IMG/VR virus record: IMGVR_UViG_3300025890_000021
Span: 1-64,000 of that record
DNA length: 64,000 nt
Reading direction: 5' to 3' (one strand)
DNA from: a virus
Taxonomy: Duplodnaviria > Caudoviricetes
Within the stretch, counting starts at the first letter, position 1. Each line of letters begins with the position of its first letter. This document shows, in pieces, positions 20,801 through 42,754 of the stretch. The notes under the pieces are model-generated. The model was not told the origin of the DNA. It searched no databases and saw nothing but the letters and a program-made list of their open reading frames with translations. The position numbers and the translations under genes were made by a program.

Positions 20801-21247
20801 TACAAATTCTTCAGGTACATTTCCAGCACCAAATGCTCCAAAAGATGCCGGGTCAAATATATTACCTGTTACTTCATCTTGATTTGTTTCTTGCCCACCA
20901 AAACTTTTGTAATTAGTTTTCAATTCACCAACGAGATACATCACACCATCTCCAGGCACAACATCATCGTATATCTCTATGGATACTCTTCTTGCTTGTC
21001 CCTCAAGGTAATTAGGTACAGGTTCTGTATAGATAGTGTTTCCACCAGCATCCAATATTTCTATTTTAAGTTCAACATTGTTTTTTAAAAATGGTGAACC
21101 TGCTATTAGAAATGATGATTTACCTTGTGGTAATGCGGTAGGGAAATCAAATACTTGGAAAAATCTTGACGATAAGCCAGATTCTTCTTCTAATATATCT
21201 ATATCCTTTAACCCTTGAAACTTATTTATTCTTTTTAATATTGCCAT
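8819..21247 (-). CDS. 4142-aa tail fibre/spike protein with internal repeats and C-terminal peptidase S74 intramolecular chaperone (8819-9145)
   Basis: SDIQFKENV...LKGVEFDW...IGFIAQEV...YNKVVALLVEAVKE plus coiled-coil end; Gly/Ser/Thr-rich beta repeats. Confidence 0.85.
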   Translation of the reverse strand: MAILKRINKFQGLKDIDILEEESGLSSRFFQVFDFPTALPQGKSSFLIAGSPFLKNNVELKIEILDAGGNTIYTEPVPNYLEGQARRVSIEIYDDVVPGDGVMYLVGELKTNYKSFGGQETNQDEVTGNIFDPASFGAFGAGNVPEEFVEQVNQFNNQDVPSEFQDVYNVRYSRPIFINPVIPNEQPIFFYRQPTVSVSEIVKPFIIPSGDIEPIILSGSVGVNPAPNLPPPPADIVPVDEGYPAISAKDIDLIGQQIEKFKNSKKAKINPFQNQSFRSRGRLVRRASPEIDRFTIEVNDVEGGSENDAGSISSAFVGSSITIKNPKVDNVKYPTEKFDIPTSYVTSIKKVNNNTTMVPEDDFLITDKLSGEKFPVSIFPGGTDTSNMEVTMSYTPQPTASLSETHFRSFAKVTTANLRTFSGDVFKAKVYAKSEGTLGDFEPMWEGPIESPQLLVDPFSDTGFVNIGYFHKKEVFQDHWVSGSNTIITRDDNQIIDGIQISGSNYADGSNLTFTTSGSFDLETNVPYTIQFNTYFYKELAEDKEGNDETNFECEVQVSTLGLTENGSVDEYQTLGKINIDDFQNVNEARIDSVFSTFVSSTLGDPKVKVRFKLNKGRAIISDVVLRPYSETNFNPDYFECIIPLPYPLPKRPDNYDFLVEFYDVNNNLAETFSIKEKVPFVGPTPVIADGLDAVFSGSMLIGESMEMFGVNPAYLRSVGYKGFQHSIDNNLGGFMIYSGSINARISASEASGFEYNGGVGLEIVDAGGSTDRYMRFRTQPSIFEVVTDTFLLGSDSQFVSGSNGNIEISSSNFHLTPAGDVTMAGTINATAGNIGDFSIIGGQISGSNITFNADNSTIFKTDQGPGSDPQSSGFETQADEYYIDFTPLEESPDNFYIKMGPNFMVNKDGILIASGATFEGSITASSGLIGGFTTDSHSFSSEQIFISGSPKQGGIDSDEYMFISTSNFNVKQNGDVTGSSFLLEGGTITDGVTILGSVSANSILTPATIGGSPATVANASSSIDSQGFAAFRSASIGGWVVDPNRLLDPNNQVEIRSDSGSIALGTTIPDDLVSNGIFITGSGEFNFQVDSNNFIRNRTSDGFKLKTQDLNIDTSTLDLSTDNGGTIKLGSSPSLSANGIFLSGSGEFNFQSDANNLIKQSGGTFEIKAQTFDLATSTLVIDSATNNGKIALGATPNTSVDGTNQGIYLDGTGDFLARGNASNFLKMDGTAMTIKAGTFDLDATSIIMDSSGDSGNGVIRLGGSGGPDSPTANTAGIYMDGGGALNVYGNATNFFRIDGGSFTIASDTFDLDAGTIIMDSATSNGKIALGQTPPTSYSSGNGFYVDGDGKFLIGSGSGGDRLQFGDGQFVIELSSGFELNANNIEISSQQASMSLGEGNIILDGSNNKIKIGKDNTKQIEIVGNATQGYIATGKNSATSTTAGFWLANNNTDPEFHVGNASNFLKFDGGDFSLASEKLEVSASTIQISTAEASMSLGHNAGNPYGRIILQGSGTPKLAIGPDAEQLSLIAGSGIFMDGDGNFKFGDSDGNITFDGGNFSITGSDVDIQVTDLNITSTGFKLSSTEASMSLGTNEDFFMRANGASPFLSIGQSTKAYEQTGLFLGMVSSSPKVSFVGSQGHFKFDTDVDIATRNFELNANNIEISSTEASMSIGEGAIRLLGGDSKILVGGTADSNKQLTIVGGAQDNFIAMGGKSSFSNEGSGTSGIIIGMDATNPQAEFVKSADNYFIFDGGSGVDIKTTTFEMDANSGDLQISSAEKSMSLNGEVVLDGTNSRIEVGSGNKIKIQGGATDNFIVMGTKSTFSDEGSGTAGILIGMDGSNPQAEFVKSANDYFIFDNGIDIKTTKLELDAGSLQLSNTQNSMSLSPDGSNPIRMVGDGTDAFIAMGGKSSFGNEGSGTNGIIIGMDGSNAQAEFVASSTNYLIFDGGIDIKTPNFKLDTTNLDIDSSTSRLQVFDAEGDEVVRLGEISDAASDIYGLKIYDGSGTGSSDTLVKLGGEGNEIAGWTISNDALTGGDMIIRQDGTIESAGFATNVAGSGFRLTAANGGFLEVENARIRGTMSTTVFEKESVNAVGGQLYVANSTTIKSGSIVTAAETTMSVDNASGFSQNEILSIKKVDTTGFSTEYVLVNSASVNNPTSLTDFSGKIFVTRAYGSGTTGESGSLGDIASTATFYSGSQVIVSTGKVGTGYIRLNANPNDPTTPYMDIVERTGSGLYDVSLKARLGDLSGLSSGLLYGNTDPGFGLFTENVFLQGAITAQTGSFTGIVHIGTSAAEEMRLGIDVSSTNDGLHINNNNYWYTTGAFKVGSANYYLQNDGSGNITIQPQQLEVTVGTDFRLSSSQKSMSFADGDLLLKKDGNDASITVGGTTSKSIKLLGSNTQGYIASGKTSVSDSTSGFWLANNNTTQEFHIGDATSGIKYDGSNVHITSSKFELDVNEGDLQISSQHKSASYGDRSIVIDGSTTSPTITLGSTSNKQITIKGTSSTAEIFSGKTSAASTTEGFWLANNNQDIEFAVGDATDFIKFDDNALSFAARSFELDAGDGDVQISSTQSSMSLAQGVIELDGGTTNVGKIKLGLTDTKNLQLTGSTTQGIIRSGKDSVNSTTAGIWIANNNTTQEFAIGDASQFIKFDSGTGNLDIQSDSIEITASNVDITTGTMFIDADDFQINSQVPSMSLGYDTTTNAGITLLGGSTSQILFGEKASPEMNLSSNGTDAFLQVGSVTFDSGTDNAGIIIGSDNGVAELHLVTDVNKYFKYDGNELDIRTTKFRVNTGGGFDISGTSGTGTSNFLKLGSATSETAGEGIYMDGGGNFRVGTATSGTSYIYYDADTDAIDIKSDTFNLDTTTLDISALGTNKTSRISMGASPPTDFASNGIIISGSGYFNFQKDGSNYIKNTSSGFDIKAANFDLDAGTIIMDSSGTGIIKLGTSATSITETANTGIFMDGGGKFRVGTATNSTDYLHFDGNNIDIKTQAFKLDTDHLDIDSAAGGSGSIALGTTPPTSAQSGNGFFVDGSGNILIGNSAASHIKFNKTTGVLDVTGTITINNFDSDFGSQISGSWEDDVTALQAGSSSMQTQVVLSSGGMALKNAAGNTTLANYGATTTIGQTSLNHVSIGSNSIKLKSGSVDLISMVDDVLTVGNDSNNKITVQPGSMQIGSVANGITMDANGDATFNGAITVTGGDIAGLTGSLDTDINALQAGSSSMQTQVVLTGDGMDLKNAAGNVTVASYGTTSTIGIDADNQSRIFIDSNSVDLIVDDSGTDSVEASFGATSTIGNTAGQHISIDTDSFDIKSDASTTLATFGSTATIGLTTAENVLIDGSGLSVRDNGTTLANFGSTATIGATTAENILINGSGLSVRDNGVTLANFGSSMIVGQSATNKSALRVDSSGNITIGTSNTTNMTITAAGAVTMSGEITAGAGSIGGWSIGGSTITGGNTTLNDNGTITLGASANANVDGTSAGIYMDAGGDFLVFGDAKNLIRFDVSDGDLDIKSEKLELVSTKFTASSADTFIKLGDEIITTGGEWSGSDGAFISGSGEFSFRSGSQFIQAVHEGSNRGLQMNFGNFSVDTSGNMAASNASFAGDISATSGFFGSASNAGWILDETAIRDSDSQVVIDGGRGDDNSFPAKIALNSGSFSAEIIPTFTPANVVLKSGGSAYNAPNQSIDNDSGLNVTSQNVSSGQSTTDIDAYVKAIGPDASGSNGIDVNTSDSGTSPELTGPGTKYQHSLTFSFRIRTDDPGSTPQSGYVSGTATYSLTVGLFDKTNSSFVTGTNTTLTGNFFTDWDYEFDLIGTSPNSYFQASRTFTRTAESTTTQDDHLFEWRIIDASATNNNLVLNYQYNLGGGHQKAGTKALEIEESRINITKVKHQPSNKVVELSPKGFQAVFLGESELENAANKYFRVTPDEEKTIDILGEAVVTGSLKVRGRSTTDTTTIGSDIATTGHIETDEYFKSSTGGSGGYRFENSAAIEYDSSRMQFHVGSVSSEDAYIDASGNFHAKADIVGFSATVSDIQFKENVNPIQDALFKVKQLKGVEFDWKQDYNNKGHDIGFIAQEVEGVKGLEPFVSEHNNIVTNKPSKVVHYNKVVALLVEAVKEQQSQIEELKSEVEELRDGSTR
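11071..11223. repeat. Near-identical 99-nt (33-aa) tandem unit in the giant tail gene
   Basis: aaccaaagtttgctaatgtt..ccattatctctaacacttaatccactaccat starts at 11071 and 11170. Confidence 0.8.
11553..11982. repeat. Exact 37-nt direct repeat (11553-11589 and 11946-11982), in frame and 131 codons apart
   Basis: acaacttgtgtttgcattgatgatgaaccagcttgta, encoding LQAGSSSMQTQVV twice. Confidence 0.85.
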
Positions 21248-26552: not shown

Positions 26553-26945
26553 TTAGAATTTATTTTTCCATTTTTTAGAATATTCTTGTTTTGCCCAATT
26601 CTCAGCTTTTCTTTCCCATTTATTTGCCCAATATCTATCTTTTCCATCTAAATCAGCTATGTTAGAAGCCTGTGAATATTTTTTCATAAACTTTCTTCTA
26701 CCCATTTTGTATATTTGTTTAGCATGATGAATCTCATGTAAGATAGTAATGATAAATTCAGAAACCTTTGGATAGTATTTGTTTAGATAGATGGTATCAG
26801 TATCCCAATTATAACCACCCTCATCTTTACCATAAGTACCAAACTTTACTTTAGATTTTAAATTATAGTATTTAACTAACTCAGAAGCTACAAATAGTAA
26901 ATCAGTTCTTTCTTGTAATAGATAAATTTCTTTCAGAGTTGTCAT
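26553..26945 (-). CDS. Zincin-like metallopeptidase-motif protein
   Basis: ILHEIHH (HExxH) followed by N.WE..AE. Confidence 0.6.
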   Translation of the reverse strand: MTTLKEIYLLQERTDLLFVASELVKYYNLKSKVKFGTYGKDEGGYNWDTDTIYLNKYYPKVSEFIITILHEIHHAKQIYKMGRRKFMKKYSQASNIADLDGKDRYWANKWERKAENWAKQEYSKKWKNKF

Positions 26946-27574
26946 TTCTTCATACTCTGAGCAAGGAACTTAGCAACTTTCTTTCCATATACTTTATCAG
27001 ATGGATAGTGTGCCTTTGCAACAATTCTACTATGTGCAATATCTTCCCCCAATTGTTTATACTCATCTCCATGTGTTGGGTCTATACTAGCTAAGTACTC
27101 ACCAATCAAATATCCTTGTATTGCATGTCCACTTGGATAACTTGGTGTTTTCATACTATCTAATTCAGTACCATTTAAATCAATGTTATAAAACTCTGCA
27201 ACTTGAAACGGTCTTGGACGATTATAATGATATTTCAACGCCATAATAAACTTACCACTTTCTTTTATAATTCTTCCGAGTATTTCGTTTGATACACTAA
27301 GTTCGTGTTTCTCAATTAATGGTATAAATACTTCTTTAACATCATCACCAAATTTAACAAACTCCTCATTAGGTTTTATTTTTGCTAATTGTTTAATCTC
27401 TTTTAATGTAAGGTTAGAATCATTCTCAGGTGGTAACTTTTTTGGTACTACCAAGTTTTCATCAAAGAGAGAAGTTCTCATTTCCATTCTCTTCTTATGT
27501 TTCGGTTTAACTTCTTCATCGGTCTTGTAATATCCCATTGTACGAAGTTCTAATAGTTCTTTTAATTTAATCAT
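26942..27574 (-). CDS. PAP2-superfamily phosphatase / vanadium haloperoxidase-like protein
   Basis: K...NRPRP, PSYPSGHA, SRIVAKAHYPSD. Confidence 0.85.
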   Translation of the reverse strand: MIKLKELLELRTMGYYKTDEEVKPKHKKRMEMRTSLFDENLVVPKKLPPENDSNLTLKEIKQLAKIKPNEEFVKFGDDVKEVFIPLIEKHELSVSNEILGRIIKESGKFIMALKYHYNRPRPFQVAEFYNIDLNGTELDSMKTPSYPSGHAIQGYLIGEYLASIDPTHGDEYKQLGEDIAHSRIVAKAHYPSDKVYGKKVAKFLAQSMKK

Positions 27575-27815
27575 TATCTGTTTCTCTTATTTTGTAGTTC
27601 TTTTTTGTAGTTCCATCAGTATGTTTAAAATTTTTATAACTGATAACTTCTACTTTAGAATGTTTTATACATTTCTTAGAGATTTCCCTTTTTTCTTTTA
27701 AAAAGAAAATTTCCTTATAATCCTCATCACTATAATGGTGTAGTTTTAATTTACCATCTATTACATGCCCACCAGTAATAATAAGTGCTATACTGAATAA
27801 TAATTCTAATATCAT
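27567..27815 (-). CDS. Small protein with N-terminal hydrophobic segment
   Basis: MILELLFSIALIITGG; coupled to neighbours. Confidence 0.5.
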   Translation of the reverse strand: MILELLFSIALIITGGHVIDGKLKLHHYSDEDYKEIFFLKEKREISKKCIKHSKVEVISYKNFKHTDGTTKKNYKIRETDND

Positions 27816-27962
27816 TTATCTACCCCAACGATTTTGTTGTTGTGAATCAGGATTTTTTGCTTTCCACTTCTTATGTTGGTTAGCAGTACGACCTTCTTTT
27901 TTCCACTTTTCGTTTAGTTTTTGTTTTTTTTGTTTTCTTATTTTTGCTGCACTATTTGGCAT
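27816..27962 (-). CDS. 48-aa basic protein (not in the ORF track)
   Basis: MPNSAAKIRKQKKQKLNEKWKKEGRTANQHKKWKAK...; fills the gap exactly between two genes. Confidence 0.6.
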   Translation of the reverse strand: MPNSAAKIRKQKKQKLNEKWKKEGRTANQHKKWKAKNPDSQQQNRWGR

Positions 27963-27963
27963 C

Positions 27964-28713
27964 TTATCTCCAATCCCATATTTTTAACATATTATACGAT
28001 ACACCAAATCCAATTACTGGTTCTGTTAATCCTGTCTTAGAATCATATATTATCCCAGCAAAAGGACCAACACTTATCTGATTTCTCGGTGGTTTTAATT
28101 TTAGGGGACTTCCTTGTCTACCACTAATTCTCACACCATTAAATAAAGTGTCTGGTACAACTGCATAATATTCACCTTTTATTTCACCTTGCTCTATGTA
28201 AGGTAAACCCATTTGTAAACTTCCATCTAATCCGAGTTCAGTTTCACTATCGGTCAATATTCCATCCTTTATTAAATATCCAGTCCTACCGAAAATTCTT
28301 AAATAATTTCCTTGTACACCGAACTCTTTTTCGAATGGTATTACCCCACTGGCATCACCTACTTTAACCTCTTGGGTCTGTGTAGGTAACTCATTAATAA
28401 GTATCTTGATACTATCAATTTCCGTTTCTAATATCTCTAACTTCTTCTTTAACGAATAGTTCTCAATACCACGAGTTTTATCATGTGTATGTAAATCAAG
28501 TAATAAATTTTCATTCTGTTTTGTTAATGTATTGACTGTATCATTTAACTCAACAATTAACTTATCCTGTCTAGCAGAATCTTCTCTCAAGAAATCCATT
28601 TCTTCTTGAGCGTAATAATAACGAATACCCACAATACATAGAATGAAGAGAATGTTTAGGAATCCACCTAATACCCACTCTCTTCTTTTTTGTGGCCAAT
28701 CTTTTAATAGCAT
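27964..28713 (-). CDS. Membrane-anchored coiled-coil protein with C-terminal amphipathic beta-hairpin (spanin-like or oligomeric barrel subunit)
   Basis: TM helix at residues 13-33, coiled coil, C-terminal ISVGPFAGIIY...VIGFGVSYN. Confidence 0.45.
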   Translation of the reverse strand: MLLKDWPQKRREWVLGGFLNILFILCIVGIRYYYAQEEMDFLREDSARQDKLIVELNDTVNTLTKQNENLLLDLHTHDKTRGIENYSLKKKLEILETEIDSIKILINELPTQTQEVKVGDASGVIPFEKEFGVQGNYLRIFGRTGYLIKDGILTDSETELGLDGSLQMGLPYIEQGEIKGEYYAVVPDTLFNGVRISGRQGSPLKLKPPRNQISVGPFAGIIYDSKTGLTEPVIGFGVSYNMLKIWDWR

Positions 28714-28721
28714 ATTAACTC

Positions 28722-29240
28722 CTATTCAACACTATTTACAGCATCATTGATGGCTTTTCTAATTGCACCACCCAACTCAGTATTTCCAAAGTCTGCTTCT
28801 TCCTCGATTTGTAATCCAGTAGCAGTTACATTAGTTTCTATCTCACCAGTCCCACGAAATATTTTTTGTGTTCCCTCAAGATTATTGACTAAATTAACAT
28901 GAAGATTAACTTGTGTTTTTTGATTTCTTCTGTTAAATAATCCAATAATACTAAATGCTTCATTTGGTTTACCAATATAAAGTACTTCTACATTAGCAGT
29001 AAAATCTGCATTATCATCTTCAACTAAACGATACCTTGTATTTTGAAATGATTCCTCAACTAATTGTTTAATACCCATAGTAACTCTACTATCAGCAACA
29101 CCAATTGATTCATCGGTTTTTACGAATTGTGATACTTTCAATGTAGGCCAATCGAGGTCTTCACCAACAACAACTGGCTTTGGTAAATCTTGTGAAAAAC
29201 CAAATCCCATCATTAACAATATCATAATCAGTTTTTTCAT
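28722..29240 (-). CDS. Secreted CsgG/TolB-N-like protein; start reassigned to 29240
   Basis: SD AAGGAG before MKKLIMILLMMGFGFS (signal peptide); GIKQLVEE..Q...YRLVE pattern. Confidence 0.45.
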   Translation of the reverse strand: MKKLIMILLMMGFGFSQDLPKPVVVGEDLDWPTLKVSQFVKTDESIGVADSRVTMGIKQLVEESFQNTRYRLVEDDNADFTANVEVLYIGKPNEAFSIIGLFNRRNQKTQVNLHVNLVNNLEGTQKIFRGTGEIETNVTATGLQIEEEADFGNTELGGAIRKAINDAVNSVE

Positions 29241-29250
29241 TTTCTTCTCC

Positions 29251-30237
29251 TTAAAAGTAAGTCCCAAATAGTATACTGAAAGATTTTCCTCTTTCACCAT
29301 AGTCATTCACGACCGTGTTAAATCCAAAACTCACACCTACATTAAAGGTGAATGCCTGTCCTAATTTCCAGTCTGCGGAAATAGTTGGAAAGAACATAAT
29401 TGGACTTCTCAGTAATAAATATTGAGAATCTCGATTTAATCCACCATAATATCTAAGTAATGTGTAAGATGTATAGTTTGCAAATGTAAACTTAATCATC
29501 TTTAAATCAATTGGAATCACCATACCATGTAATACTGAAAGGTTTCCAAATGTATTATCACTTACACTTCCAAAACTTGTGGTTAGTACAATAACTTCTG
29601 ATTGTGGTTTAATCAGAGATTTTGCATAAGAGGTAGATACTAACCAATCCCACCCCTCAAATGTTTCAAATGCTACACCCGTACCACTTATCACTTGATT
29701 CTGCTTCTTCGAAATAAAGTTAATACCTTGTCCGTAAGTACCACTAAATCGTGTGAAGTCATCGGTGAATGAGAAATTACCATCGTACCTACTCTTACCA
29801 TCAAATGATGTTCTTGTGTACACACTATTAAATGTGGTAACCCAACTACTATCCACACTTGGTGAACTTTTTATAGCATAATTTACTTGTGATGGTTGGT
29901 TACTTATATCACCTTTACTAAATTGTTCTGTAGCATTTTGTGCAAGTGCACTCGCCAAAATCTCTTCAGCAACTCTTACTGCACAAGGAAATAAATCTTC
30001 GAAATCATTGTATACATTCTCTGCCCATAATTCAAGTTCTCCTGCAAGAACTTCTTCTAATGTAAAAAATCTTGATTTATTATAGTAGGAAACATAGAAT
30101 CCATTTCCATCTTGTTGTACCCTATAGTTATTTCTTACAATCGTCTGATTACAAGGGTCAACATAATTATAAAAAAAACCTTGTGCAGAGAGTAAACTAC
30201 AGAATAATCCTATAACTATTAATACTCTCTGCCACAT
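29251..30237 (-). CDS. Putative outer-membrane beta-barrel protein
   Basis: Signal peptide; alternating aromatic/hydrophobic strands; ends SFSILFGTYF (BAM-type terminal Phe). Confidence 0.55.
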   Translation of the reverse strand: MWQRVLIVIGLFCSLLSAQGFFYNYVDPCNQTIVRNNYRVQQDGNGFYVSYYNKSRFFTLEEVLAGELELWAENVYNDFEDLFPCAVRVAEEILASALAQNATEQFSKGDISNQPSQVNYAIKSSPSVDSSWVTTFNSVYTRTSFDGKSRYDGNFSFTDDFTRFSGTYGQGINFISKKQNQVISGTGVAFETFEGWDWLVSTSYAKSLIKPQSEVIVLTTSFGSVSDNTFGNLSVLHGMVIPIDLKMIKFTFANYTSYTLLRYYGGLNRDSQYLLLRSPIMFFPTISADWKLGQAFTFNVGVSFGFNTVVNDYGERGKSFSILFGTYF

Positions 30238-30242
30238 TCATT

Positions 30243-30884
30243 CTACCAACCTCTACGGTCTATTGCTTTAATTACATTTACAACCGCAGTTTCCATTGCC
30301 TTATTTGAGGCGGAACTTAAAGAACTCTGATTCCATTCCATATTTGGATTTTTTAGGAATCCTTGACCTATTGTGGAAGCTCTTCCTTGACCACTACCAA
30401 CCACATACTGAGTATTTTCATTATTGATTACTTTAACTTGAATACCAACAATAGTTTCGTTTATTGTTTGAACTTTCCCACTCTTGATATCTTCTTGTAA
30501 GTTAACAGCAAAATCATAAATAGTTACATACGCAGTGTACTTGGTTTTCTCTATTTTTGCTTCGTTGGCTTTTAAATCGTTGATGATAGATAATTGTACA
30601 TCTCTATCTCCCTCAACAAGATTAAATCTTCCAATGTAAGAAATAACATTTGCAAGTTCTTGGTTTAACCCAAATGCAACTCGTTTATTTCCAAGTTCTG
30701 GATATTGTTCTTCAAGTTCTTTATTAAATTTAACATCCAAAATCTTTAGATTATCAACTTTAGTTATTTCAATTTCATCTAATGATTTCTGTTTCTCATA
30801 CTCACCAACATATTGTTCCGTTGATACTGATGCTGCACATCCGTATAAACCTATTAAAAACAATATTGAGAATATCTTATTCAT
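30243..30884 (-). CDS. CsgG/HfaB-like lipoprotein
   Basis: Lipobox LYGC; GLNQEL..I...GRFNLVE; VTIYDF; VGIQVKVIN...GSGQG. Confidence 0.6.
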   Translation of the reverse strand: MNKIFSILFLIGLYGCAASVSTEQYVGEYEKQKSLDEIEITKVDNLKILDVKFNKELEEQYPELGNKRVAFGLNQELANVISYIGRFNLVEGDRDVQLSIINDLKANEAKIEKTKYTAYVTIYDFAVNLQEDIKSGKVQTINETIVGIQVKVINNENTQYVVGSGQGRASTIGQGFLKNPNMEWNQSSLSSASNKAMETAVVNVIKAIDRRGW

Positions 30885-30897
30885 TTTTATCTCCTAT

Positions 30898-31278
30898 TTA
30901 TCTGAAATCCGATAACGGGTCTTTCAGTAGTTTTTCCAATCGTTCAATCTCACCATTTAATTTATCAATCTCATTCTGTAGTTTAATTATATCTCCATCA
31001 TATGATTTTACTTTTGGCGTTTTTAATCCATCTACTTTTTCTCGTAGATATTTTAATTCTTCATCAATATTTTCAAAGTTATTGGTTACAATTTCTATAT
31101 CACTTGCTTCTGCAAATCCTTGTACTACTTCTTCCAATGAATCAATGCGGCCAGTAAAACTATACCACCCAGCAATTGCGGTAGAAAGAAAAGTAACAAT
31201 AGCAATAATATTGTTAATTGATACTCCGAACTTTTTTCCTTTGACTTCTTCAATAGCTTGTTCTATATCCTTTGCCAT
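30898..31278 (-). CDS. Single-TM coiled-coil protein
   Basis: TM IIAIVTFLSTAIAGWY followed by heptad repeats; SD AAGGAG. Confidence 0.6.
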   Translation of the reverse strand: MAKDIEQAIEEVKGKKFGVSINNIIAIVTFLSTAIAGWYSFTGRIDSLEEVVQGFAEASDIEIVTNNFENIDEELKYLREKVDGLKTPKVKSYDGDIIKLQNEIDKLNGEIERLEKLLKDPLSDFR

Positions 31279-31293
31279 TTTATTTCTCCTTAA

Positions 31294-31353
31294 TTAACAT
31301 TCACAGCAAGAGCAATTACAACTCTCACATTTACATTCTTTACAATCACACAT
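31294..31353 (-). CDS. 19-aa metallothionein-like micropeptide MCDCKECKCESCNCSCCEC (not in the ORF track)
   Basis: 9 Cys in 19 aa; GGAG 7 nt upstream of ATG; starts 1 nt after the PorV-like stop and ends just before the next SD. Confidence 0.6.
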   Translation of the reverse strand: MCDCKECKCESCNCSCCEC

Positions 31354-31354
31354 A

Positions 31355-32221
31355 CTATATCTCCACATTAATAGTTAGTAACATTGAATCTTTCAATGGA
31401 TGTGTATCATCACCTGATATAAATCCTAATCCAACATTGTATTTATCATACTCGAATCCCATACCTATTGATGGATAATTCAACTGATGGTCTACATCAC
31501 TATAATATCCTGCTCTGAACCAAAACATATCTTTTAAGTTATATGATAAACCTTGTCCCATAGTATAGTATCCACTATAAATATTCCATTGATTATAAAT
31601 ATCCCAATTATTAATAGGTATTTTTACACCTACATTCAAACTTGTTGGAATCTCAATTTCATATCCATTCATCTTAGTCATTATACCGACATTAGCAATC
31701 ATAATATCCATATCTAATTTTTTCCAAAAATCATCCATGTGAATACCAACATCGAATAACATACCATCAGTTTTTTCTGTATATAAATCGTGAAAGACTA
31801 CTTTACCCTCTACACCTATTGATACACTATCCAACTTATTACCCTTATAATATAAAGGTGTACCCCAACTCACTCCGAGTTTGGTGGTTGTTGGTGCAAA
31901 CGAACCATTGACTGTTCCATATAAATCAGTCGATTTCTGTTCTCCGTAATCAAAGTGTAAAAGGTTAAAGCCAAAACTCTTCCATCTTACATCAATATAG
32001 TTATATCCCATATCATCTACGATATTCTTTAACCATTGTACATTTGTAAAACTTACATTGGTTGTAGTATCAAGATTGAAATGGTTTTTTGCGGGATTTC
32101 TAAATGCAAGTGATTGGTTCCCCAATGTTGTTTCTTCTGCAGATGGTGATATCGTTAATACACGATTAACCTGTCCAAATAGAGAAGTTACAAACAACAA
32201 ACCTAATATTACTTTTTTCAT
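31355..32221 (-). CDS. porV: PorV/PorQ-family outer-membrane beta-barrel
   Basis: Signal peptide, then LTISPSAE...LGN...FRNPA...VSFTNVQWLKNIVDDM.Y, matching the PorV N-terminal I.P.AR...G...NPA...WL..l..D pattern. Confidence 0.7.
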   Translation of the reverse strand: MKKVILGLLFVTSLFGQVNRVLTISPSAEETTLGNQSLAFRNPAKNHFNLDTTTNVSFTNVQWLKNIVDDMGYNYIDVRWKSFGFNLLHFDYGEQKSTDLYGTVNGSFAPTTTKLGVSWGTPLYYKGNKLDSVSIGVEGKVVFHDLYTEKTDGMLFDVGIHMDDFWKKLDMDIMIANVGIMTKMNGYEIEIPTSLNVGVKIPINNWDIYNQWNIYSGYYTMGQGLSYNLKDMFWFRAGYYSDVDHQLNYPSIGMGFEYDKYNVGLGFISGDDTHPLKDSMLLTINVEI

Positions 32222-32232
32222 TATCTATCCTC

Positions 32233-34884
32233 TTATTTAACGACCGTAAATTTATTGGCCTTAATTTTATTTCCACTCTGTAAAACAAATATATAAACAC
32301 CTGGTTCTAAAGTTTGGTGTTCTTGATAAACACTAACTTCAGGTAACCAAACACTTGGTTCATTTGAAAAATCAAATGTGTGTATACCTGGTTCTACACT
32401 CTCATCTAACAATGTTCCAACATATTGTCCATTAGAGTTTAGTATGTAAAGTTTTACATCTGACAACTCTTCAACATAAAATTGGAATCTTGTATTTTCT
32501 CTAAATGGATTTGGATAGTTATAAGTTAGCTCATTCTCTTCTGGTTCTCCACCACCGAATGCCCAATATTTATTCCATACCATCACTTTACCACTCTGTC
32601 TACTCACTAATAAATCTTGACCACTTGGATTACCAGCAGCATATTTATCAACGAAGTTTACAGGTGCTTCTGTCCACTCTGCATCAGGAAAATCTGCTCT
32701 GAATAATAATGTTAGAGCATTTATCTGACTATCTATCCAATAAGTTTGTGGTGCGTTACCTGGTGAATAATCCATACCACCAAATGATACTTTCTGTTTA
32801 CCTTGTATTGGTTCGTGTACATTCACATAAGTGAACCACGGCCCTGGTAAGTTTCCAGTCTTCATATCAACAAACTCTAATTCATTAGAATTAAATTCTA
32901 CTTCAAACTCAAATCCAGCAACATTTACTTGTTCTGGTGTTAGAGTGAATGGTACTTCAATAATATCACCACTACGAACTCTGACTGTGGAATCTGCAGG
33001 TAATGTCATAAACACATCAGGTGTATTAAATGCAATTTTGTTTGCCCAAGTACTTGGTGGGTTACCATTACCCCAACGATAATATGTATCGCCATTTATA
33101 TCAATGTATCCATCAGTACTTCCTACATCTTCAATATCGAAATCATCACCATCTGATGTTGAACCTGCTTCTTTTACTTTAGTACCACTTGCGTTTACAT
33201 CTCCTGTAAAGAAGTATGCTAAACTATCAATTGTGTAATCTGGATTAACATCATTTCCATATGTAGATGAACCACCAGCAAAACCAATATCTAAGGTATC
33301 TAAACCAGTCTGAATATCATCCATCAATGGATTGATAACTTCAATCTGTCCAAATTGTAATGTAGTATCTTGGTCAAAATCATCATCTTTGAATATAGTA
33401 AACTCATATCTTTGATTACCCCAATCTTCATAGTATCCATAAGGAAATGGTTCACCACCCTCTTTTAGTGTATCGATAGTTGCCCAACTCTGTAGTGTAT
33501 CACCATTTAAGTGAACATATGTATCAATGATACCACTTGTGTATGCCCATAAGAAATATGCATCATTTAATTGGAATACATCATCTCCATCCACATCACC
33601 AATAAAGTATTCAACTGCGTTTAGTGTATCTACACCTGTAACAGATTTAAACTTATTACTTTGGAAATTAAATGCTGCAATAGCATCGTTGATGTTTGTA
33701 ATTCCATATCTATCCAATGTTAATGGTGTATGTGATTCAATATCATCACTAGCATCTGGTGGATAAAATGACATACGATATTTTTGGTTTCGTGGTAACT
33801 GAATATTATAATATCCTCTATCATCTGTGTATGTAGAATCAAAATAACTTACTCCTAAGAAACCCTCACCTGGTAGCGTTTGTGCTGCAGTAGTTCCTTT
33901 ATCATCAAACCAAAATGTAGATGTATCATCACCAATGACATCATCGGTTGTTGTTTCATCAGTTAAGTTTGCTTCATTATCAATATCTTCAATGTTGTAC
34001 CAACTATTGTATTCATCTGGATTACTTTGGTCTAATTCAAATCTAATCTTCCAATAAGGATAAGTGTTATCATTAGTTATTGCATTATCTTGTGCATACC
34101 TAAAGTATCCCTCAACATCAACAAGTTTTGGATGTAGAGAAATATCTCCTCTTGCACCACCTTGGTCTGTTTCTTCCGTACCATAATTACCATCAATGTA
34201 AACATCGTAATCTAATAAGTAATCATCACTTATATAAGTGTAGTATCCCTCACCACCCTCATATAATGTTGGTACTCTAAAAGAACGCGGACTGAAATCA
34301 TCCACAACATCTTCTATTTTAAAATTTAATTTTACTAATTGTTTTTGAACACCCTCTCCACCACCAAAAGTAAATTCATCACCATTGTGTGATACCATTG
34401 TAATTCTTAACCAATCGTATCTTGCATTAGCTTCTGATTTTTCACTATCAGCAGTTTGTAAAGAATCGATATATCCAACATCGGAATAGTGAACAACTTC
34501 ATATGAATAATCAGCTCCTGCGGTAGAATCACCCTCAGTTGCTTGAGTTAACCATGAACCTTTTAATACTTCAGTATCTTCATCATCCCAATCAATTATA
34601 TCGTTATCAAAAATAATATCTAATCTTAGTGCAGTAACATCAGCACCATCATCATCAAGTGTAACTTCCATAGTCATTACACTATCTCTCCAAGCATCAA
34701 AATTATTATTATACAAAGCAGGATTATCTTTATCATCTGCTAAGTAAGTTTGTAATTGATGCGTAACACTTTCTCTCCACCAATACTCTGGTGTATCATA
34801 AGTGCCAGTTTGCATAATCCTAATGACGGGTTCTTGTGGGAAGACAAAACCCAACCACATTAGGCCTATTATCAACCATCTCAT
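32233..34884 (-). CDS. Acidic secreted protein with cohesin-like domains, a dockerin-like repeat and a T9SS C-terminal sorting domain
   Basis: Signal peptide; cohesin-like VTALRLDIIFD and VAGFEFEVEFNSNELEF; dockerin-like GDVDGDDVFQLNDA..L..Y..G; CTD YNYPNPF...VKLYILNSNGQYV...LEPGVYIFVL...KFTVVK. Confidence 0.8.
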   Translation of the reverse strand: MRWLIIGLMWLGFVFPQEPVIRIMQTGTYDTPEYWWRESVTHQLQTYLADDKDNPALYNNNFDAWRDSVMTMEVTLDDDGADVTALRLDIIFDNDIIDWDDEDTEVLKGSWLTQATEGDSTAGADYSYEVVHYSDVGYIDSLQTADSEKSEANARYDWLRITMVSHNGDEFTFGGGEGVQKQLVKLNFKIEDVVDDFSPRSFRVPTLYEGGEGYYTYISDDYLLDYDVYIDGNYGTEETDQGGARGDISLHPKLVDVEGYFRYAQDNAITNDNTYPYWKIRFELDQSNPDEYNSWYNIEDIDNEANLTDETTTDDVIGDDTSTFWFDDKGTTAAQTLPGEGFLGVSYFDSTYTDDRGYYNIQLPRNQKYRMSFYPPDASDDIESHTPLTLDRYGITNINDAIAAFNFQSNKFKSVTGVDTLNAVEYFIGDVDGDDVFQLNDAYFLWAYTSGIIDTYVHLNGDTLQSWATIDTLKEGGEPFPYGYYEDWGNQRYEFTIFKDDDFDQDTTLQFGQIEVINPLMDDIQTGLDTLDIGFAGGSSTYGNDVNPDYTIDSLAYFFTGDVNASGTKVKEAGSTSDGDDFDIEDVGSTDGYIDINGDTYYRWGNGNPPSTWANKIAFNTPDVFMTLPADSTVRVRSGDIIEVPFTLTPEQVNVAGFEFEVEFNSNELEFVDMKTGNLPGPWFTYVNVHEPIQGKQKVSFGGMDYSPGNAPQTYWIDSQINALTLLFRADFPDAEWTEAPVNFVDKYAAGNPSGQDLLVSRQSGKVMVWNKYWAFGGGEPEENELTYNYPNPFRENTRFQFYVEELSDVKLYILNSNGQYVGTLLDESVEPGIHTFDFSNEPSVWLPEVSVYQEHQTLEPGVYIFVLQSGNKIKANKFTVVK

Positions 34885-34962
34885 CGTAGTTCCTTTTCAG
34901 TTATTTTAATCTATGTCAACTCCCACTCGATTGGTGGGTTTGGTGTAGCCTTAATTCACAAT

Positions 34963-34970
34963 AATAAATA
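34963..34970 (-). promoter_or_regulatory. TATTTATT motif upstream of the envelope cassette
   Basis: Intergenic, about 80 nt upstream of 34884. Confidence 0.45.
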
Positions 34971-34995
34971 TAATATATAAAAAAATAATGATGTG

Positions 34996-37864: not shown

Positions 37865-40800
37865 TTAATCAACTTTTAACTTGGAATCGCCTGGTTCTTG
37901 AGTTACAAGTTTTGTAGGTGAAGTTATTGTTATTTCAACAGGTTCCTTACCATCAATAGTATTATTTTTCGTTAATAATTCTTGTTTGTAAAATAATCTA
38001 AATAGTTTAGATTCATATGCTACACTTTGAAATTCTGCTGGTGCAAATGATGAACTATATGATTCACCTCTTGATGCACTTGCCTCACTTGAATAAAAGA
38101 ATTCTTTTATTTCATTGTGTTCTGATATTCGTGATGCACTAACAAAAGGATTGAACGCCTCTTCAAATGTAGGTTCTATATCTCCCTCTGTTATACTTGC
38201 CGTTGCATATAAATTCCCATAATCACTTCTTGGGTCTATTTGATTAATTTTATTTAATGTAGGTATTCCTAATGTTCCAAGTGAACCACTTTCGAGATTG
38301 TGTAAATTTACATCTCCATTATATGTTGTGTACTCACCATGAAAACGATATGGTATAGGTTCTGCGGAACTACTTAATCTACTTGTTAATTGTATACCAT
38401 TATCAAAATGTCCTGCGTTCTCATAATATACATTATCAAACTCAGGTATCTTACCTACTACTTCTTTACTTCTTTCTAAAAGATTAGGTTCTATTAATAA
38501 ACCTAATGTTGTATTTGCTCTTGCTGGAGCTAATTTTAATAATTGGTCAAATATACTTCTATCAAAGAAGTTTATAATTCTCATGTAATCCCAAAAGTTA
38601 TTACTACGAGAATACTTTTTCCAATAATCTCTTTGTACTTTATCTAACCCACGATATCCTATTCTGTATTGGTCTCTTGGGTCTCCGATTTCATTATCAA
38701 GATTTATATCTGCTAATGAATACATAATATCTTCGTTCACCACATCAACTGGTGAAAAGAACACACCAAGTTTATTACTATCTATTGGTGCAAAACTTTG
38801 TGCAGAAACTTCTTGTCTAATATTAGAAGAAAGATTACCAAGTAGTTTCGTGTTCTCTGTTCTAATCTTTGTTGCGTTTCTTCTTGCTGGTCCAATATTT
38901 GGAACTTTCATTTGTTCTTTATCGGATATACTTCTAAATAAATTCTCACTATATCCAACCGCACTCGCACTTGCAAAGTAATTAGTTTGATATGATTTAT
39001 CATCTAACTGATAGTTTGTTCCACTACCTAAATTACTATTCTCACCCAATGGTAATCTGAATATTAAGTTATCATACATGGAAGATGTTGTGTTACCATT
39101 GTATGCTTTTGGTGCCATTACATGATTCTCAAATACACTTTGTGATAAAGGTTCACTCCATAATCTGAACTCCATCAAAGAACCACTAAGTCTTGTCTTG
39201 TGGAATTTATCATTATGTCCACCAACCCACAAGTTAGCACTTTGAGTAAATGCACCATTAATATCATTTGATGTTGTAGATAAACTTGATGAGTTAGAGT
39301 ATACAATTACTTCTCTTGATGCATCATATTGTCTTGCAGTTAACTCATATGTTACTTCTTGTGAAACATCATCCGATGTTAAATCTGCACCACTTGATGA
39401 TTTTCTTGTTAACATCACACTAAACATATCATCATTGTATACAGGTAGTAAAGAAGAAGTTACAAATGTATTTCCACTACTTCCACTAATACTAAACTGA
39501 ACTCTACCAAGATTATCAGTTGCTCCGTTATCAAGTAATTCTATTGCCCAATTATTTTCTGATTCAACAATAACTTGATTTTGTGATTTAGGACTTCTAA
39601 ATCTAAATTCAATTGTTTGTGGTTTTATATTACTAACACTATCGTTTGTCCATGGCGTTAGTAAATACTGACTTGACCTAAAATCTAATGCGTATGTAAA
39701 CTTCCTTTTTATTTCATAACTTACTCTATCATTTAAATCTGGTCCACCATATTCTCTAACTCTTAGTAATGAACTTGGTATACCATAACAATTCATCAAT
39801 CCTTTCATAGCACGGACAGTACCTTTGTTCTTCATAAAGAAAGGTAAGTTAGATAAAATTCTTTTCCATATTTCTTCTGTTAATGCTTCACTTGGTGTTT
39901 CATTTAATGCTGCACCACTTGAATCTTTTCCTAACAAGTATGTTGGTAGAATAACTAAATCATTTCCACTATTAACTTCAAAACCCATATTCTTTGCAAT
40001 TTCTTTTACAATATCCTTTGAGATACCCTCTGATACTTTAGGTACTCTTTCATTTACATCTGTGAAGTGTCTTAAGTAACTCCATATCTCATCAAATTGT
40101 TCACCCACCATATCCATAAAATCTAAGAACACTTCGTTTTGTGTATCTTGATTTACATGAGCAGGTAATTGATTTGTTAACCTATCCATGTTTGCTCTAT
40201 CATATTCTCTTGAGTAACCAATCCAAGTATTCCACCATGCGGTAACTTGAGAACTTGATGTATGATAAAGTGTGTGTGGTTCAGTAGAACTTTCTTTTGG
40301 CCAACTAGCATCATAGAACTCACCAAGTGAACTTGATGCATAACTTGATGAGACTGTATATAAAAAGTTTTCATATGGACCAAATGAGTTTATCACTTGT
40401 CTTTTCTTCAAATCAAAATCTGCTTGTGTTTCACCAGAACCTGTAACATTTGATATTGATAATGAAGATGAAGTATACTTCTCTACTAATTCTACTTTCT
40501 TTCTAAAATTTCTTAATCTTGTTTCTGCCGAACTAAAGTTAACAAAGTTACCAAATCCATAATCGGTTGTTTCACCATCTGCAGATAATTTTTCAGTTCG
40601 TTTTTGGTAATCAATATTTAATTGTACATCAAGTAAACTACTTGAGTGAACTGAGTTTATAATCTCTTCATTGGTTGAACTATCACTACTTAATAGGTCA
40701 TCATATTTTTTATAATTTGTACCTCTAAAGTTTATTGGATTTGAAGTAGAGTTTAAGTTAGGAACTCTAAGAAATAAATACTCATCATCTTCTTCAACAA

Positions 40801-42754
40801 ATGGTATTAGTTTTATTTTATCTTCATATGGTTCCATTTTCTCTTCAACAAAATAAGCCAAATCACCCACTTCTAATTCTTCAGGTAATGGTTTATAAAA
40901 TTTAAAGTAACGAGCAGTTTTATCAGAAAACGCATCCAATGGTACAACACCTGGGTCTGTTTGTAATACATCTTTTGGACTATCTAAAACACTAATTGCT
41001 AAGTGATATCCATGTTCAGTAACCATGTAGTTATTTAATCTTGAAACTTTGTTCTTTCTGTAGTTAACATAAAATTCATCAAAGAAGTTACCACTTACAT
41101 CATCACCACTATGTTCTGATTCTGTAGCACCCATTTCATATGATTTATCTACACGAACTCTATTGTTATCAAGTATCTCTACAATAGTAGCAACAAAATC
41201 AATTGGTGTATTTTCAAAAATTACTTCTGGTTCTTGTGCAGTATCTTCTTCATCTAATTCAGGTACAATATCTGTGATACCATCTTGTATTTGAACCCTT
41301 ACTATCTCATCAACTATTTCTCTTGTTACAGCTGGAACTTGTTCATTTATTACCCATTCATTTGTTGGTGCGATTGTACTTGGTGTTGAAGTTGCTGCTC
41401 CACCACCAGTTCCACTATCACCACCACCACCTTGTCCATCTTCAAAATCTTCTGCTAATCTTAACATATTGATACGATGGTTTCTCTGATGTAAGAAGTG
41501 TTCCATACTTCTCCATTTACCAAGTGTAGCACTAACTACATTATCAGCATATATAGTGTGGTGTTTATCTAATATTAAATTCCAAACATCTAATGGTGAT
41601 GATTTAAATTCTGTACCAACTTCATTTGCCATATACCACTTACCACGATGTTTAATCGGGTGATGGTCTGTTGTGATTAGTTTACCAATCCTAACTAACT
41701 TATCACCATAAGGTCTGTTATCTTTTACTACCTTTAATACTTTTGCAAAACCTTGTTCAGTTTTCACTTTCATACCAGGTCTCATCATCTTGATTGGTAA
41801 GGTACGATTGTTACTTAATTTTATTTGTGTATCACCTACAAAACAAACACTACCATAATCATCAAACCTATCTAAATCTTGATAACTATCATCTGGTGCA
41901 GGTACTTCTGCTATCTGTTCTATGACTGGTGTAGGTTTACCTTGTGTTGCACCTTTGATTGCTTTTCGTGCAACCTTTCTAACTATTTCTGAATCTAATC
42001 TTCTCTTAGGGCCTACATCATCCTCAACTATTTTTTCTACAATTTTTTCTCTTGTGATTGTGTAAGTGTACATACCAGGTATAACAATTTCTCCACCAAC
42101 CATGTTATCAGTAAATCCTCTTTCGTTTCTACCTGTAACGAATTGTAATACATATGGGTCTGTTTTATCAAACTTTATTTTACCAGCATTTGCTCTATTC
42201 TTTTTTGGTGTGTACACCATATCTTTGTTGATAGATGTAAAATCTTTTTGGTAAGGAACATTATTTATATTTTGTAAATCAACTTTTATCTCTCTTTTAT
42301 TAGGTGAGATTTGTTTGATTCTGTATTGTAATTTTTTAGGTAATAACTCTGTAGATTTACCCTCTGAAAGTTTTTGTTTACCAGATGTGAAATAACGAGT
42401 ACGACCATTGACAGTTTTTACTTGTGCTTTACCAATATGAATAAAACTATCTTCGTTAATTAAAACATCTTCTTGTTTTCCAGCCAATCTTCTTAAGAAA
42501 AGATATTTTACTTTATACTCACCAATTTCTAATCCCATTGAACGAAGATGTGTACCTACATCTAAATCAACTAAGTTTGGTGTTGGAAACTTTACTTCAC
42601 CTGCAGGAAATATATCATCATCGACATATTTGTCTTCCATATCATAAACATACAAATGTAAGTAATCAGAATTATCTCTACCAAATCCACTATATACGGG
42701 TCTTGGTGATTCTAATTCTTCTCTATCTTTATCCGTTAAACCATACTCTAACAT
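37865..42754 (-). CDS. 1629-aa baseplate-associated protein with an internal Hint (Vint-like) domain (about 41510-41845) and a LamG/ConA-like domain
   Basis: CFVGDTQIKL...ITTDHHPI...VWNLILDKHHTIYADNVVSATLG; later TIEFRF...LWVGG...GSLMEFRLW (LamG-like); baseplate context. Confidence 0.65.
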   Translation of the reverse strand: MLEYGLTDKDREELESPRPVYSGFGRDNSDYLHLYVYDMEDKYVDDDIFPAGEVKFPTPNLVDLDVGTHLRSMGLEIGEYKVKYLFLRRLAGKQEDVLINEDSFIHIGKAQVKTVNGRTRYFTSGKQKLSEGKSTELLPKKLQYRIKQISPNKREIKVDLQNINNVPYQKDFTSINKDMVYTPKKNRANAGKIKFDKTDPYVLQFVTGRNERGFTDNMVGGEIVIPGMYTYTITREKIVEKIVEDDVGPKRRLDSEIVRKVARKAIKGATQGKPTPVIEQIAEVPAPDDSYQDLDRFDDYGSVCFVGDTQIKLSNNRTLPIKMMRPGMKVKTEQGFAKVLKVVKDNRPYGDKLVRIGKLITTDHHPIKHRGKWYMANEVGTEFKSSPLDVWNLILDKHHTIYADNVVSATLGKWRSMEHFLHQRNHRINMLRLAEDFEDGQGGGGDSGTGGGAATSTPSTIAPTNEWVINEQVPAVTREIVDEIVRVQIQDGITDIVPELDEEDTAQEPEVIFENTPIDFVATIVEILDNNRVRVDKSYEMGATESEHSGDDVSGNFFDEFYVNYRKNKVSRLNNYMVTEHGYHLAISVLDSPKDVLQTDPGVVPLDAFSDKTARYFKFYKPLPEELEVGDLAYFVEEKMEPYEDKIKLIPFVEEDDEYLFLRVPNLNSTSNPINFRGTNYKKYDDLLSSDSSTNEEIINSVHSSSLLDVQLNIDYQKRTEKLSADGETTDYGFGNFVNFSSAETRLRNFRKKVELVEKYTSSSLSISNVTGSGETQADFDLKKRQVINSFGPYENFLYTVSSSYASSSLGEFYDASWPKESSTEPHTLYHTSSSQVTAWWNTWIGYSREYDRANMDRLTNQLPAHVNQDTQNEVFLDFMDMVGEQFDEIWSYLRHFTDVNERVPKVSEGISKDIVKEIAKNMGFEVNSGNDLVILPTYLLGKDSSGAALNETPSEALTEEIWKRILSNLPFFMKNKGTVRAMKGLMNCYGIPSSLLRVREYGGPDLNDRVSYEIKRKFTYALDFRSSQYLLTPWTNDSVSNIKPQTIEFRFRSPKSQNQVIVESENNWAIELLDNGATDNLGRVQFSISGSSGNTFVTSSLLPVYNDDMFSVMLTRKSSSGADLTSDDVSQEVTYELTARQYDASREVIVYSNSSSLSTTSNDINGAFTQSANLWVGGHNDKFHKTRLSGSLMEFRLWSEPLSQSVFENHVMAPKAYNGNTTSSMYDNLIFRLPLGENSNLGSGTNYQLDDKSYQTNYFASASAVGYSENLFRSISDKEQMKVPNIGPARRNATKIRTENTKLLGNLSSNIRQEVSAQSFAPIDSNKLGVFFSPVDVVNEDIMYSLADINLDNEIGDPRDQYRIGYRGLDKVQRDYWKKYSRSNNFWDYMRIINFFDRSIFDQLLKLAPARANTTLGLLIEPNLLERSKEVVGKIPEFDNVYYENAGHFDNGIQLTSRLSSSAEPIPYRFHGEYTTYNGDVNLHNLESGSLGTLGIPTLNKINQIDPRSDYGNLYATASITEGDIEPTFEEAFNPFVSASRISEHNEIKEFFYSSEASASRGESYSSSFAPAEFQSVAYESKLFRLFYKQELLTKNNTIDGKEPVEITITSPTKLVTQEPGDSKLKVD

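Follow-up and report, generated by a model that had tools for sequence, protein, structure and literature searches.

A conserved phage operon of predicted envelope proteins with a type IX sorting signal and a PorV-family barrel

What might a tailed phage do with a packed series of genes whose products are predicted to enter the envelope of its host? The question is raised by a locus in a stretch of DNA of 64,000 nucleotides (nt), hereafter the window, which comprises positions 1–64,000 of the record IMGVR_UViG_3300025890_000021 (Duplodnaviria; Caudoviricetes). In the genome of this large, uncultured marine phage, a run of envelope-protein genes occupies positions 34884 to 27964 of the minus strand, with neighbouring genes no more than 15 nt apart. 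As read from the sequence, all products of this block except a micropeptide bear a signal peptide, a lipobox or a transmembrane (TM) segment. [quoted passage not shown] We consider it moderately probable that the operon provides T9SS-dependent display together with an outer-membrane complex, and that these remodel the surface of the infected cell. The genes of the block are listed below (aa, amino acids; CTD, C-terminal domain).

32233–34884, minus strand: cargo protein, 883 aa, acidic (156 Asp plus Glu) and without Cys, with a Sec signal, a cohesin-type region at about residues 626–780 and a type A CTD at residues 790–881
31355–32221, minus strand: PorV-like barrel, 288 aa, with a signal peptide; the gene starts 11 nt past the cargo gene
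31294–31353, minus strand: micropeptide, 19 aa, nine of them Cys, without a signal peptide
30898–31278, minus strand: first TM coiled-coil protein, 126 aa, with a single TM segment at residues 17–42 followed by a coiled coil
30243–30884, minus strand: CsgG-like lipoprotein, 213 aa, with the lipobox LYGC and a predicted CsgG-like fold
29251–30237, minus strand: putative outer-membrane barrel, 328 aa, with a signal peptide, an N-domain containing C29 and C85, a beta-rich region and an aromatic C-terminus of the outer-membrane protein (OMP) type
28722–29240, minus strand: second CsgG/LpoB-like protein, 172 aa, with a signal of the signal peptidase I (SPI) type and without Cys
27964–28713, minus strand: second TM coiled-coil protein, 249 aa, with a TM segment at residues 11–35, a coiled coil and a conserved beta-rich C-domain

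An earlier note on this DNA had described a co-directional, tightly packed run of envelope genes between tail and replication genes. The eight elements that it named (a T9SS cargo with CTD, a PorV-like barrel, a Cys micropeptide, a TM coiled coil, a CsgG-like lipoprotein, a beta-barrel, a second CsgG-like protein and a TM/beta protein) are all present on the minus strand at the coordinates given for them, with one start codon revised below. The tight packing stands, but the lower end at 27964 does not: the packed unit is longer, running from 34884 to 26553 on the minus strand with no intergenic gap above 15 nt.

The cargo protein and the PorV-family barrel

The case for a T9SS cargo begins at the end of the 883-aa protein, where residues 790–881 match TIGR04183 with 26.7 bits against a cut-off of 23. 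The same model is matched by all five cargo orthologs collected, and Pfam PF18962 scores under its own cut-off (17.3 against 27). The CTD is also the best-kept region of the cargo (77% against 43–60% elsewhere, as compared with the most distant ortholog). The cohesin-type region matches Cohesin PF00963 with 25.4 bits (cut-off 24.1), and the N-terminus reads as Sec-type, with a short charged start, a hydrophobic run and an invariant Gln17. One sub-lineage (L023–L025) has an open reading frame (ORF) of 36 aa called between the cargo and PorV-like genes, at 7499–7609.

The product of the next gene belongs to the PorV/PorQ family. It scores 99.4 bits for NF033709 against a cut-off of 90, over model positions 6–325 of 326, and this model is matched by 15 of 15 barrel orthologs. 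A profile of these orthologs matches the solved PorV chain of Flavobacterium johnsoniae, 6h3i_F, with an E-value of 1.4e-6. We built a tree from the phage proteins and 27 members of the family that came from 12 Flavobacteriales genomes and bore labels based on a PorQ equivalog search and on score. In it, the phage barrels group as one long-stemmed clade (support 100/100). Canonical PorV is the sister of this clade, with moderate support (86/82), and PorQ and a third cellular subfamily lie apart from it. Searched against INPHARED phages by tblastn, the PorV-like barrel gave zero matches. The third subfamily, with proteins of about 350–380 aa, was found in 7 of the 13 Flavobacteriales genomes searched (L036, L044, L047, L050, L051, L053 and L054) and forms a clade with support 100/99.

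In Porphyromonas gingivalis, PorV keeps the CTD protein PorU on the cell surface, and PorQ does so for the CTD protein PorZ (PMC5562754). Because of this precedent, we propose that the phage barrel most likely binds the conserved CTD of the cargo and escorts or retains it. Scans with Pfam and NCBIfam identified neither SprA/Sov, GldLM/PorLM, GldKN nor PorU among the block proteins. The earlier note had the phage installing a secretion module of its own instead of relying solely on the host T9SS, a proposal that is not supported, as no translocon, motor, ring or sortase was identified in the block by these scans. The type A CTD thus probably needs the T9SS of the host, a machine that the cassette would exploit.

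We hypothesize that the 883-aa cohesin protein would be exported by Sec and then, by virtue of its type A CTD, cross the outer membrane through the T9SS of the host. The phage PorV-family barrel would bind the CTD and escort the cargo or hold it on the surface, where the cohesin domain could make it a scaffold or an adhesin. In a second sub-module, the CsgG-like lipoprotein, the putative barrel and the second CsgG-like protein may form an outer-membrane or periplasmic complex, which the two inner-membrane-anchored coiled-coil proteins could tie across the periplasm. The purpose that we prefer is an altered surface of the infected cell, acting either through adhesion or aggregation by cohesin/lectin-type modules or through receptor masking against superinfection. 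The analysis establishes the families and folds of the parts, their export signals, their phage setting and their conservation together, and from there complex formation, CTD–barrel binding and this purpose are inferred.

The CsgG-like proteins and their membrane partners

Does the block encode an outer-membrane complex next to the display pair? Its lipoprotein is 77–91% identical across 18 aligned homologs. Neither of the two CsgG-like proteins matched PF03783 (CsgG) directly at E-values up to 1. A profile search with the lipoprotein against 1.84 billion representatives found 126 relatives, and an alignment of 34 sequences (A4) was assembled from the query, three close orthologs and the full-length relatives found by profile. 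In this alignment, PF03783 is matched by 18 of the 34 sequences (best E-value 1.9e-17) and LpoB by five. Most of the distant CsgG-like relatives come from contigs of 2–3 kb, and their surroundings were uninformative. A first AlphaFold2 model of the lipoprotein, from a shallow alignment of close homologs, was unusable, with a predicted local distance difference test score (pLDDT) of 44.7; the model from the deeper A4 alignment reached a pLDDT of 76.5. In a VIA-align comparison of the latter, the top eight entries were all CsgG (Z 12.2–13.3; root-mean-square deviation 2.7–3.9 Å; 155–178 residues), followed by lower values for LptE, PelC and DUF330 (Z 9–10.7) and for TraT (Z 7.2). The ESM Atlas is consistent with a CsgG-like lipoprotein. 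Together, the transitive profile search and the predicted fold argue that the 213-aa lipoprotein belongs to the CsgG/LpoB-like superfamily.

The second CsgG-like protein is homologous to the lipoprotein family (hhalign, 95.9%; E-value 6.5e-9), in keeping with the two CsgG-like proteins of the earlier note. Its start is set at 29240 rather than at 29306, because the orthologs start there. Since it has no Cys, it is not a lipoprotein. Among the block proteins, no match to curli partner families was found in Pfam or NCBIfam.

Between the two CsgG-like genes lies that of the 328-aa exported protein, in which both N-domain Cys residues and the terminal Phe are invariant. It gave zero matches in Pfam, NCBIfam, PHROG and PDB sequences and zero matches by tblastn to INPHARED phages, and by hhalign it is unrelated to the PorV-like barrel. 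The ESM Atlas provided a weak OMP lead only. We regard the protein as a putative outer-membrane barrel on account of its exported, beta-rich sequence and its C-terminus. For five of the seven larger block proteins, searches of Pfam, NCBIfam, PHROGs and PADLOC returned nothing past coiled-coil noise.

The 126-aa TM coiled-coil protein is the most conserved of the block, with 95% identity to its counterpart in locus L004, where the cargo is at 54%. Family scans yielded weak coiled-coil-type matches only, about 30 in number, one of which is a sub-threshold match to DUF2730 (20.4 bits against a gathering threshold of 24.9). The 249-aa protein gave only coiled-coil noise against PDB sequences, and one of its orthologs has a faint match to DUF6808. 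At the micropeptide slot, a Cys-rich ORF is present in seven sequences (the window and six related loci), with 16–20 aa counted from an inner start codon and 7–9 Cys; its sequence has diverged.

An additional small gene (114–131 aa) lies between the coiled-coil and lipoprotein genes in some relatives (L004, 9330–9674; L005, 11373–11729; L008, 2896–3252; L023, 8960–9355) and is missing from the window. Two of the products were translated; they are mutually unrelated, and each is very basic with a hydrophobic end. This interval looks like a variable slot in a conserved operon.

Relatives and competing explanations

Is the block a stable part of a phage lineage? The lineage corresponds to hundreds of protein clusters in marine metagenomes. 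Block order is identical in all related contigs examined, from IMG/VR, Tara/ENA, JGI and a metagenome-assembled genome (MAG) of GTDB, down to a barrel identity of 44%. The phage genes on its two sides recur as well: four IMG/VR contigs have them, as do Tara and further ENA assemblies, contigs from JGI and a Flavobacteriales MAG contig of 9 kb. Retention of synteny in relatives had been set as a check beforehand, as had viral linkage, and both are borne out by block order and by phage-gene junctions that recur in independent assemblies. None of the three results that the earlier note had named as refuting was obtained. Relative to L004, identity is 95% for the 126-aa TM coiled-coil protein, 92% for the lipoprotein, 66–68% for the putative barrel, the second CsgG-like protein and the 249-aa protein, 62% for the PorV-like barrel and 54% for the cargo. 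A search of 200 other Flavobacteriales genomes turned up no member of the 328-aa family. The CsgG-like profile matched 3 of the 200, and the one match that was inspected proved to be an ordinary CsgG/DUF-lipoprotein operon. The cassette was therefore not copied recently from a host operon.

Among deposited phages, those nearest by the baseplate wedge protein are Microcystis phage Mel-JY01 (46%), an uncultured 484-kb phage and Flavobacterium phage vB_FspM_immuto (38%; MW353176; hereafter immuto). The structural module is colinear with that of immuto through two 335-aa paralogs that end just ahead of the block. A tblastn search of 50,697 phage records with the lipoprotein returned one match, immuto gene 17 (E-value 8e-23), which belongs to a related cassette, immuto35A_13 to immuto35A_19, annotated only as lectin, cohesin or hypothetical. 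This run encodes, in order, a C-type lectin protein, a product with a dockerin-like motif at its end, a 243-aa protein with cohesin and CTD, a TM protein and a CsgG-like protein, followed by proteins of 474 aa and 151 aa. The 243-aa protein has a strong type A CTD (45.4 bits) and aligns to the cohesin region of the cargo. In the 474-aa protein, which was located through synteny, only the N-domain aligns to the 328-aa protein, and the 151-aa protein is a homolog of the second CsgG-like protein (96.4%).

Common to the two phages, and arranged alike, are thus the cohesin protein with type A CTD, the TM protein, the CsgG-like protein, the 328-aa homolog and a second CsgG-like protein. They differ in several respects. 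The immuto cassette lacks a PorV-like gene, and a homolog of the 249-aa protein was not seen in it; its cohesin protein is small and follows separate lectin and dockerin-like-ended proteins; its CsgG-like protein lacks the lipobox and its TM protein the coiled coil; and it adjoins nucleotide-metabolism genes, whereas the block adjoins tail genes. Because immuto has no PorV-like gene and carries the cassette at another genome position, the shared genes define the core of a module (cohesin plus CTD, TM, CsgG-like, 328-aa family, second CsgG-like) that is old and able to move within phage genomes, and the marine lineage has gained the PorV-like barrel. In the cyanophage Mel-JY01, which is closer by wedge protein, tblastn detected none of the queried cassette genes, as fits a module tied to T9SS-bearing hosts.

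Several observations weigh against T9SS-dependent display with surface remodelling. The barrel fails the equivalog cut-offs, with 52 bits against 250 for NF033710 (PorV) and 45.6 against 220 for NF033711 (PorQ); it has 288 aa against about 400 for PorV, so that loops used by PorV may be missing; and its absence from immuto means that it is not essential to the cassette. No catalytic or sugar-binding domain was recognised in the cargo by family scans, and the barrel nature of the 328-aa protein is only deduced. The block is core to the lineage and not a variable island, which is less typical of exclusion or moron genes. Finally, the placing of a lipoprotein gene right behind a TM coiled-coil gene is also reminiscent of spanins.

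This last feature leads to the competitor that survives best, a lysis or egress module in which the TM coiled coils and lipoprotein(s) are spanin-like, or a pore of the CsgG type sets the time of outer-membrane disruption at the end of infection or helps to bring it about, with the T9SS pair as a passenger. The gene of the 126-aa type-II-like TM protein, a gap of 13 nt and the lipoprotein gene reproduce the classic layout of i-spanin and o-spanin; these two proteins are the most conserved of the block (95% and 92%), and, like lysis genes, the block belongs to the core of the lineage. DUF2730 is the family of the Mu gp25 releasin (PMC9239132), and a timing role was suggested for CsgG/CsgF of phage Melnitz (PMC9004378). 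However, the DUF2730 hit is one of the roughly 30 weak coiled-coil-type matches, and the lipoprotein is a 213-aa protein with a predicted globular CsgG fold, whereas o-spanins are short. The immuto homolog of the lipoprotein lacks the lipobox Cys, the immuto TM protein lacks the coiled coil, and neither an endolysin nor a holin was recognised among the scanned genes adjoining the block or among the annotated products adjoining the immuto cassette. The cargo, the barrel and the cohesin/lectin modules would also be left unexplained, and we consider a lysis function unlikely.

Less probable still is a decoy, in which the short PorV-like barrel, with or without the cargo, jams SprA/Sov of the host. 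Host adhesins that leave by the T9SS and act as phage receptors would thereby be kept off the surface, with superinfection exclusion and the sparing of progeny from debris as results. In Flavobacterium, gliding/T9SS genes underlie resistance to many phages. On the tree the barrel groups as the sister of canonical PorV (86/82), it is about 100 aa shorter than PorV, and barrel and cargo evolve fastest in the block, at a pace like that of the adjoining tail proteins. On the other side, a conserved, well-formed CTD and a large conserved cargo favour productive secretion over jamming, nothing in the analysis points to an interaction with SprA, and immuto has no barrel. We regard this explanation as improbable.

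An equally improbable extension of the display reading is that the whole block forms a single phage-made envelope machine. In it, a CsgG-type ring and a barrel would be tied to the inner membrane by the coiled coils, and a PorV-type barrel would place the cohesin scaffold, rewiring or partly bypassing the host T9SS. If true, this would be the first virus-encoded outer-membrane secretion or display apparatus, and it would belong to a very abundant marine phage lineage.

A virion module, standing in for the tail fibre or spike genes of immuto and with the 'CTD' as a beta-sandwich fibre tip, is highly unlikely. The block does occupy the position of the immuto tail fiber and tail spike genes after the two common 335-aa paralogs, and the cargo changes at a rate resembling that of tail proteins. 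Signal peptides, a lipobox, a PorV-family barrel and CsgG folds are, however, envelope and not virion features; immuto keeps its fibres and has its homologous cassette elsewhere, beside nucleotide-metabolism genes; and another part of the window encodes a fibre of 4142 aa that bears an S74 chaperone, so that the 883-aa protein need not be a fibre. We rejected the tail-fibre reading on these grounds. Host DNA misassembled onto a phage contig, or a bacterial island, might be suggested by two relatives in MAGs labelled Pelagibacteraceae and Flavobacteriales, but it is refuted by the same phage junctions on both sides in independent assemblies from many samples, and is further opposed by the uniform composition of the window, the short, phage-like MAG contigs and the scarcity of the 328-aa and CsgG-like families in the 200 Flavobacteriales genomes (none and three, respectively).

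How does the favoured combination of display pair and outer-membrane complex compare with known systems? Phages are known to add single envelope proteins (Lom, Bor, Llp, Cor and TraT-like), and the surface-exclusion lipoprotein TraT, whose fold the block lipoprotein also matches, is a case of a mobile element using such a fold for exclusion. For such single proteins, as for phage T9SS cargo and phage CsgG clusters, function has so far been simple or unknown. The phage pair resembles PorV–PorU and PorQ–PorZ (PMC5562754), and SprA–PorV (6h3i), in combining a PorV/PorQ-family barrel with a CTD protein; in the known pairs, the barrel keeps that protein at the cell surface or shuttles it. It differs in being phage-encoded and in having as partner a cohesin protein and not a sortase or a carrier of anionic lipopolysaccharide. 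The barrel itself, about 100 aa shorter than PorV and under both equivalog cut-offs, forms its own deep clade, and its binding to the CTD is a proposed one.

Bellas et al. (2020, PMC7468147) described 'Cryophage', a phage of a Bacteroidota host that encodes proteins with type A sorting domains and needs the host T9SS for them. Its cargos are variable island genes (glycoside hydrolases, PA14) without a dedicated barrel or CsgG-like partners, whereas the operon described here is fixed and multi-gene. Pelagimyophages and methylophage Melnitz carry CsgG/CsgF clusters ('curli', type VIII secretion) of unknown function (PMC7029224, PMC9004378). These resemble the block in that an outer-membrane protein of the CsgG type shares a small operon with hypotheticals, between structural and replication modules of large marine myophages. 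They encode recognisable proteobacterial-type CsgG plus CsgF in phages of SAR11 and OM43 hosts, whereas the partners in the block are T9SS parts. No similarity between these clusters and the block was found by tblastn, Pfam CsgG is not matched directly, and CsgF, CsgE, CsgA and CsgB were not detected in the block.

The block recalls the PelC–PelB and LptE–LptD systems in that its putative barrel gene comes right after a lipoprotein gene and in the fold match to PelC and LptE (Z 9–10). PelB and LptD are much larger than the putative partner barrel of the block, and no sequence relation ties the block to these systems or to TraT. CsgG is clearly a better structural match (Z 13.3) than PelC, LptE or TraT.

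Phage T9SS cargo and phage CsgG clusters have thus been known separately, and their combination with a phage PorV-family barrel is seemingly undescribed: in a limited full-text literature search, which is not proof of absence, we found no description of a phage PorV-family gene or of the combined cassette. The locus represents a whole envelope operon fixed in a phage lineage, including a member of the T9SS machinery, the PorV-family barrel. If the barrel–CTD pairing is true, cargo-specific PorV-like anchors would be movable as a cassette, which bears on substrate sorting and retention in T9SS. The cultured pair of immuto and Flavobacterium sp. LMO8, with its related cassette, makes function directly testable, and that function would inform the behaviour of infected Flavobacteria on marine particles.

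Genome setting and host

The surroundings of the block are those of a phage. All sizeable ORFs of the window are on the minus strand, and GC content is even at about 0.33, with uniform composition. The following features adjoin the block or bear on its reading.

44713–46683, minus strand: baseplate wedge (phrog_6), among the tail/baseplate genes upstream of the block
37865–42754, minus strand: 1629-aa baseplate-region protein with a Vint-type Hint domain
34885–34995, minus strand: upstream spacer of 111 nt, AT-rich, with a hairpin at 34922–34938, separating the last tail-module gene from the cargo gene
26553–27962, minus strand: tail of the packed unit, encoding four proteins: one of 48 aa that is very basic, one of 82 aa with a TM segment near its N-terminus, a 210-aa PAP2 protein and a 130-aa HExxH protein
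8819–21247, minus strand: 4142-aa giant fibre with a C-terminal Peptidase_S74 intramolecular chaperone

In keeping with the placement between tail and replication genes given in the earlier note, the wedge gene, an S74-chaperone protein and the 1629-aa Vint-domain protein are upstream, and genes for a PDDEXK nuclease, a primase and an SbcCD-like nuclease are downstream. The spacer is the sole sizeable gap and therefore the probable start of the transcription unit. A scan for sigma-70-type promoters returned fewer than expected from shuffled sequence, a consensus that is uninformative for a Bacteroidota phage.

The host would be a member of the Bacteroidota, probably of the Flavobacteriales, as judged from the T9SS parts, the kinship with a Flavobacterium phage, a MAG with canonical PorV and the residue that follows the SPI sites. 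An invariant Gln stands directly after all four predicted SPI cleavage sites (in the products of 32233–34884, 31355–32221, 29251–30237 and 28722–29240), orthologs included. Gln after SPI cleavage is the Q-rule of Bacteroidetes (PMC5837995), and this residue may serve as a host-phylum marker for uncultured phages. The immuto cassette proteins have Gln at the same post-cleavage place. The Flavobacteriales MAG (NAT55) that holds the 9-kb contig of a relative (L008) has its own canonical PorV (495 bits). Lineage contigs were binned in MAGs of two classes, Pelagibacteraceae (P0040/P0267) and Flavobacteriales NAT55 (L008), so at least one label is a binning artefact, and with a relative labelled Pelagibacteraceae, binning is weak evidence of host.

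The genes from 27962 to 26553 continue the unit with gaps of 1, 0, −8 and −4 nt. The PAP2 phosphatase gene (26942–27574, minus strand) is supported by PF01569 (39.8 bits) and by acid phosphatases in the PDB (E-value 3e-11). Its product is closest to periplasmic class A acid phosphatases, yet it has no visible signal peptide, and its gene is packed into the same unit. A PAP2 lipid A phosphatase (LpxE) is reportedly tied to T9SS function in P. gingivalis, going by the title of one paper. The genes at 26553–27962 trail the block in relatives as well, that of PAP2 among them.

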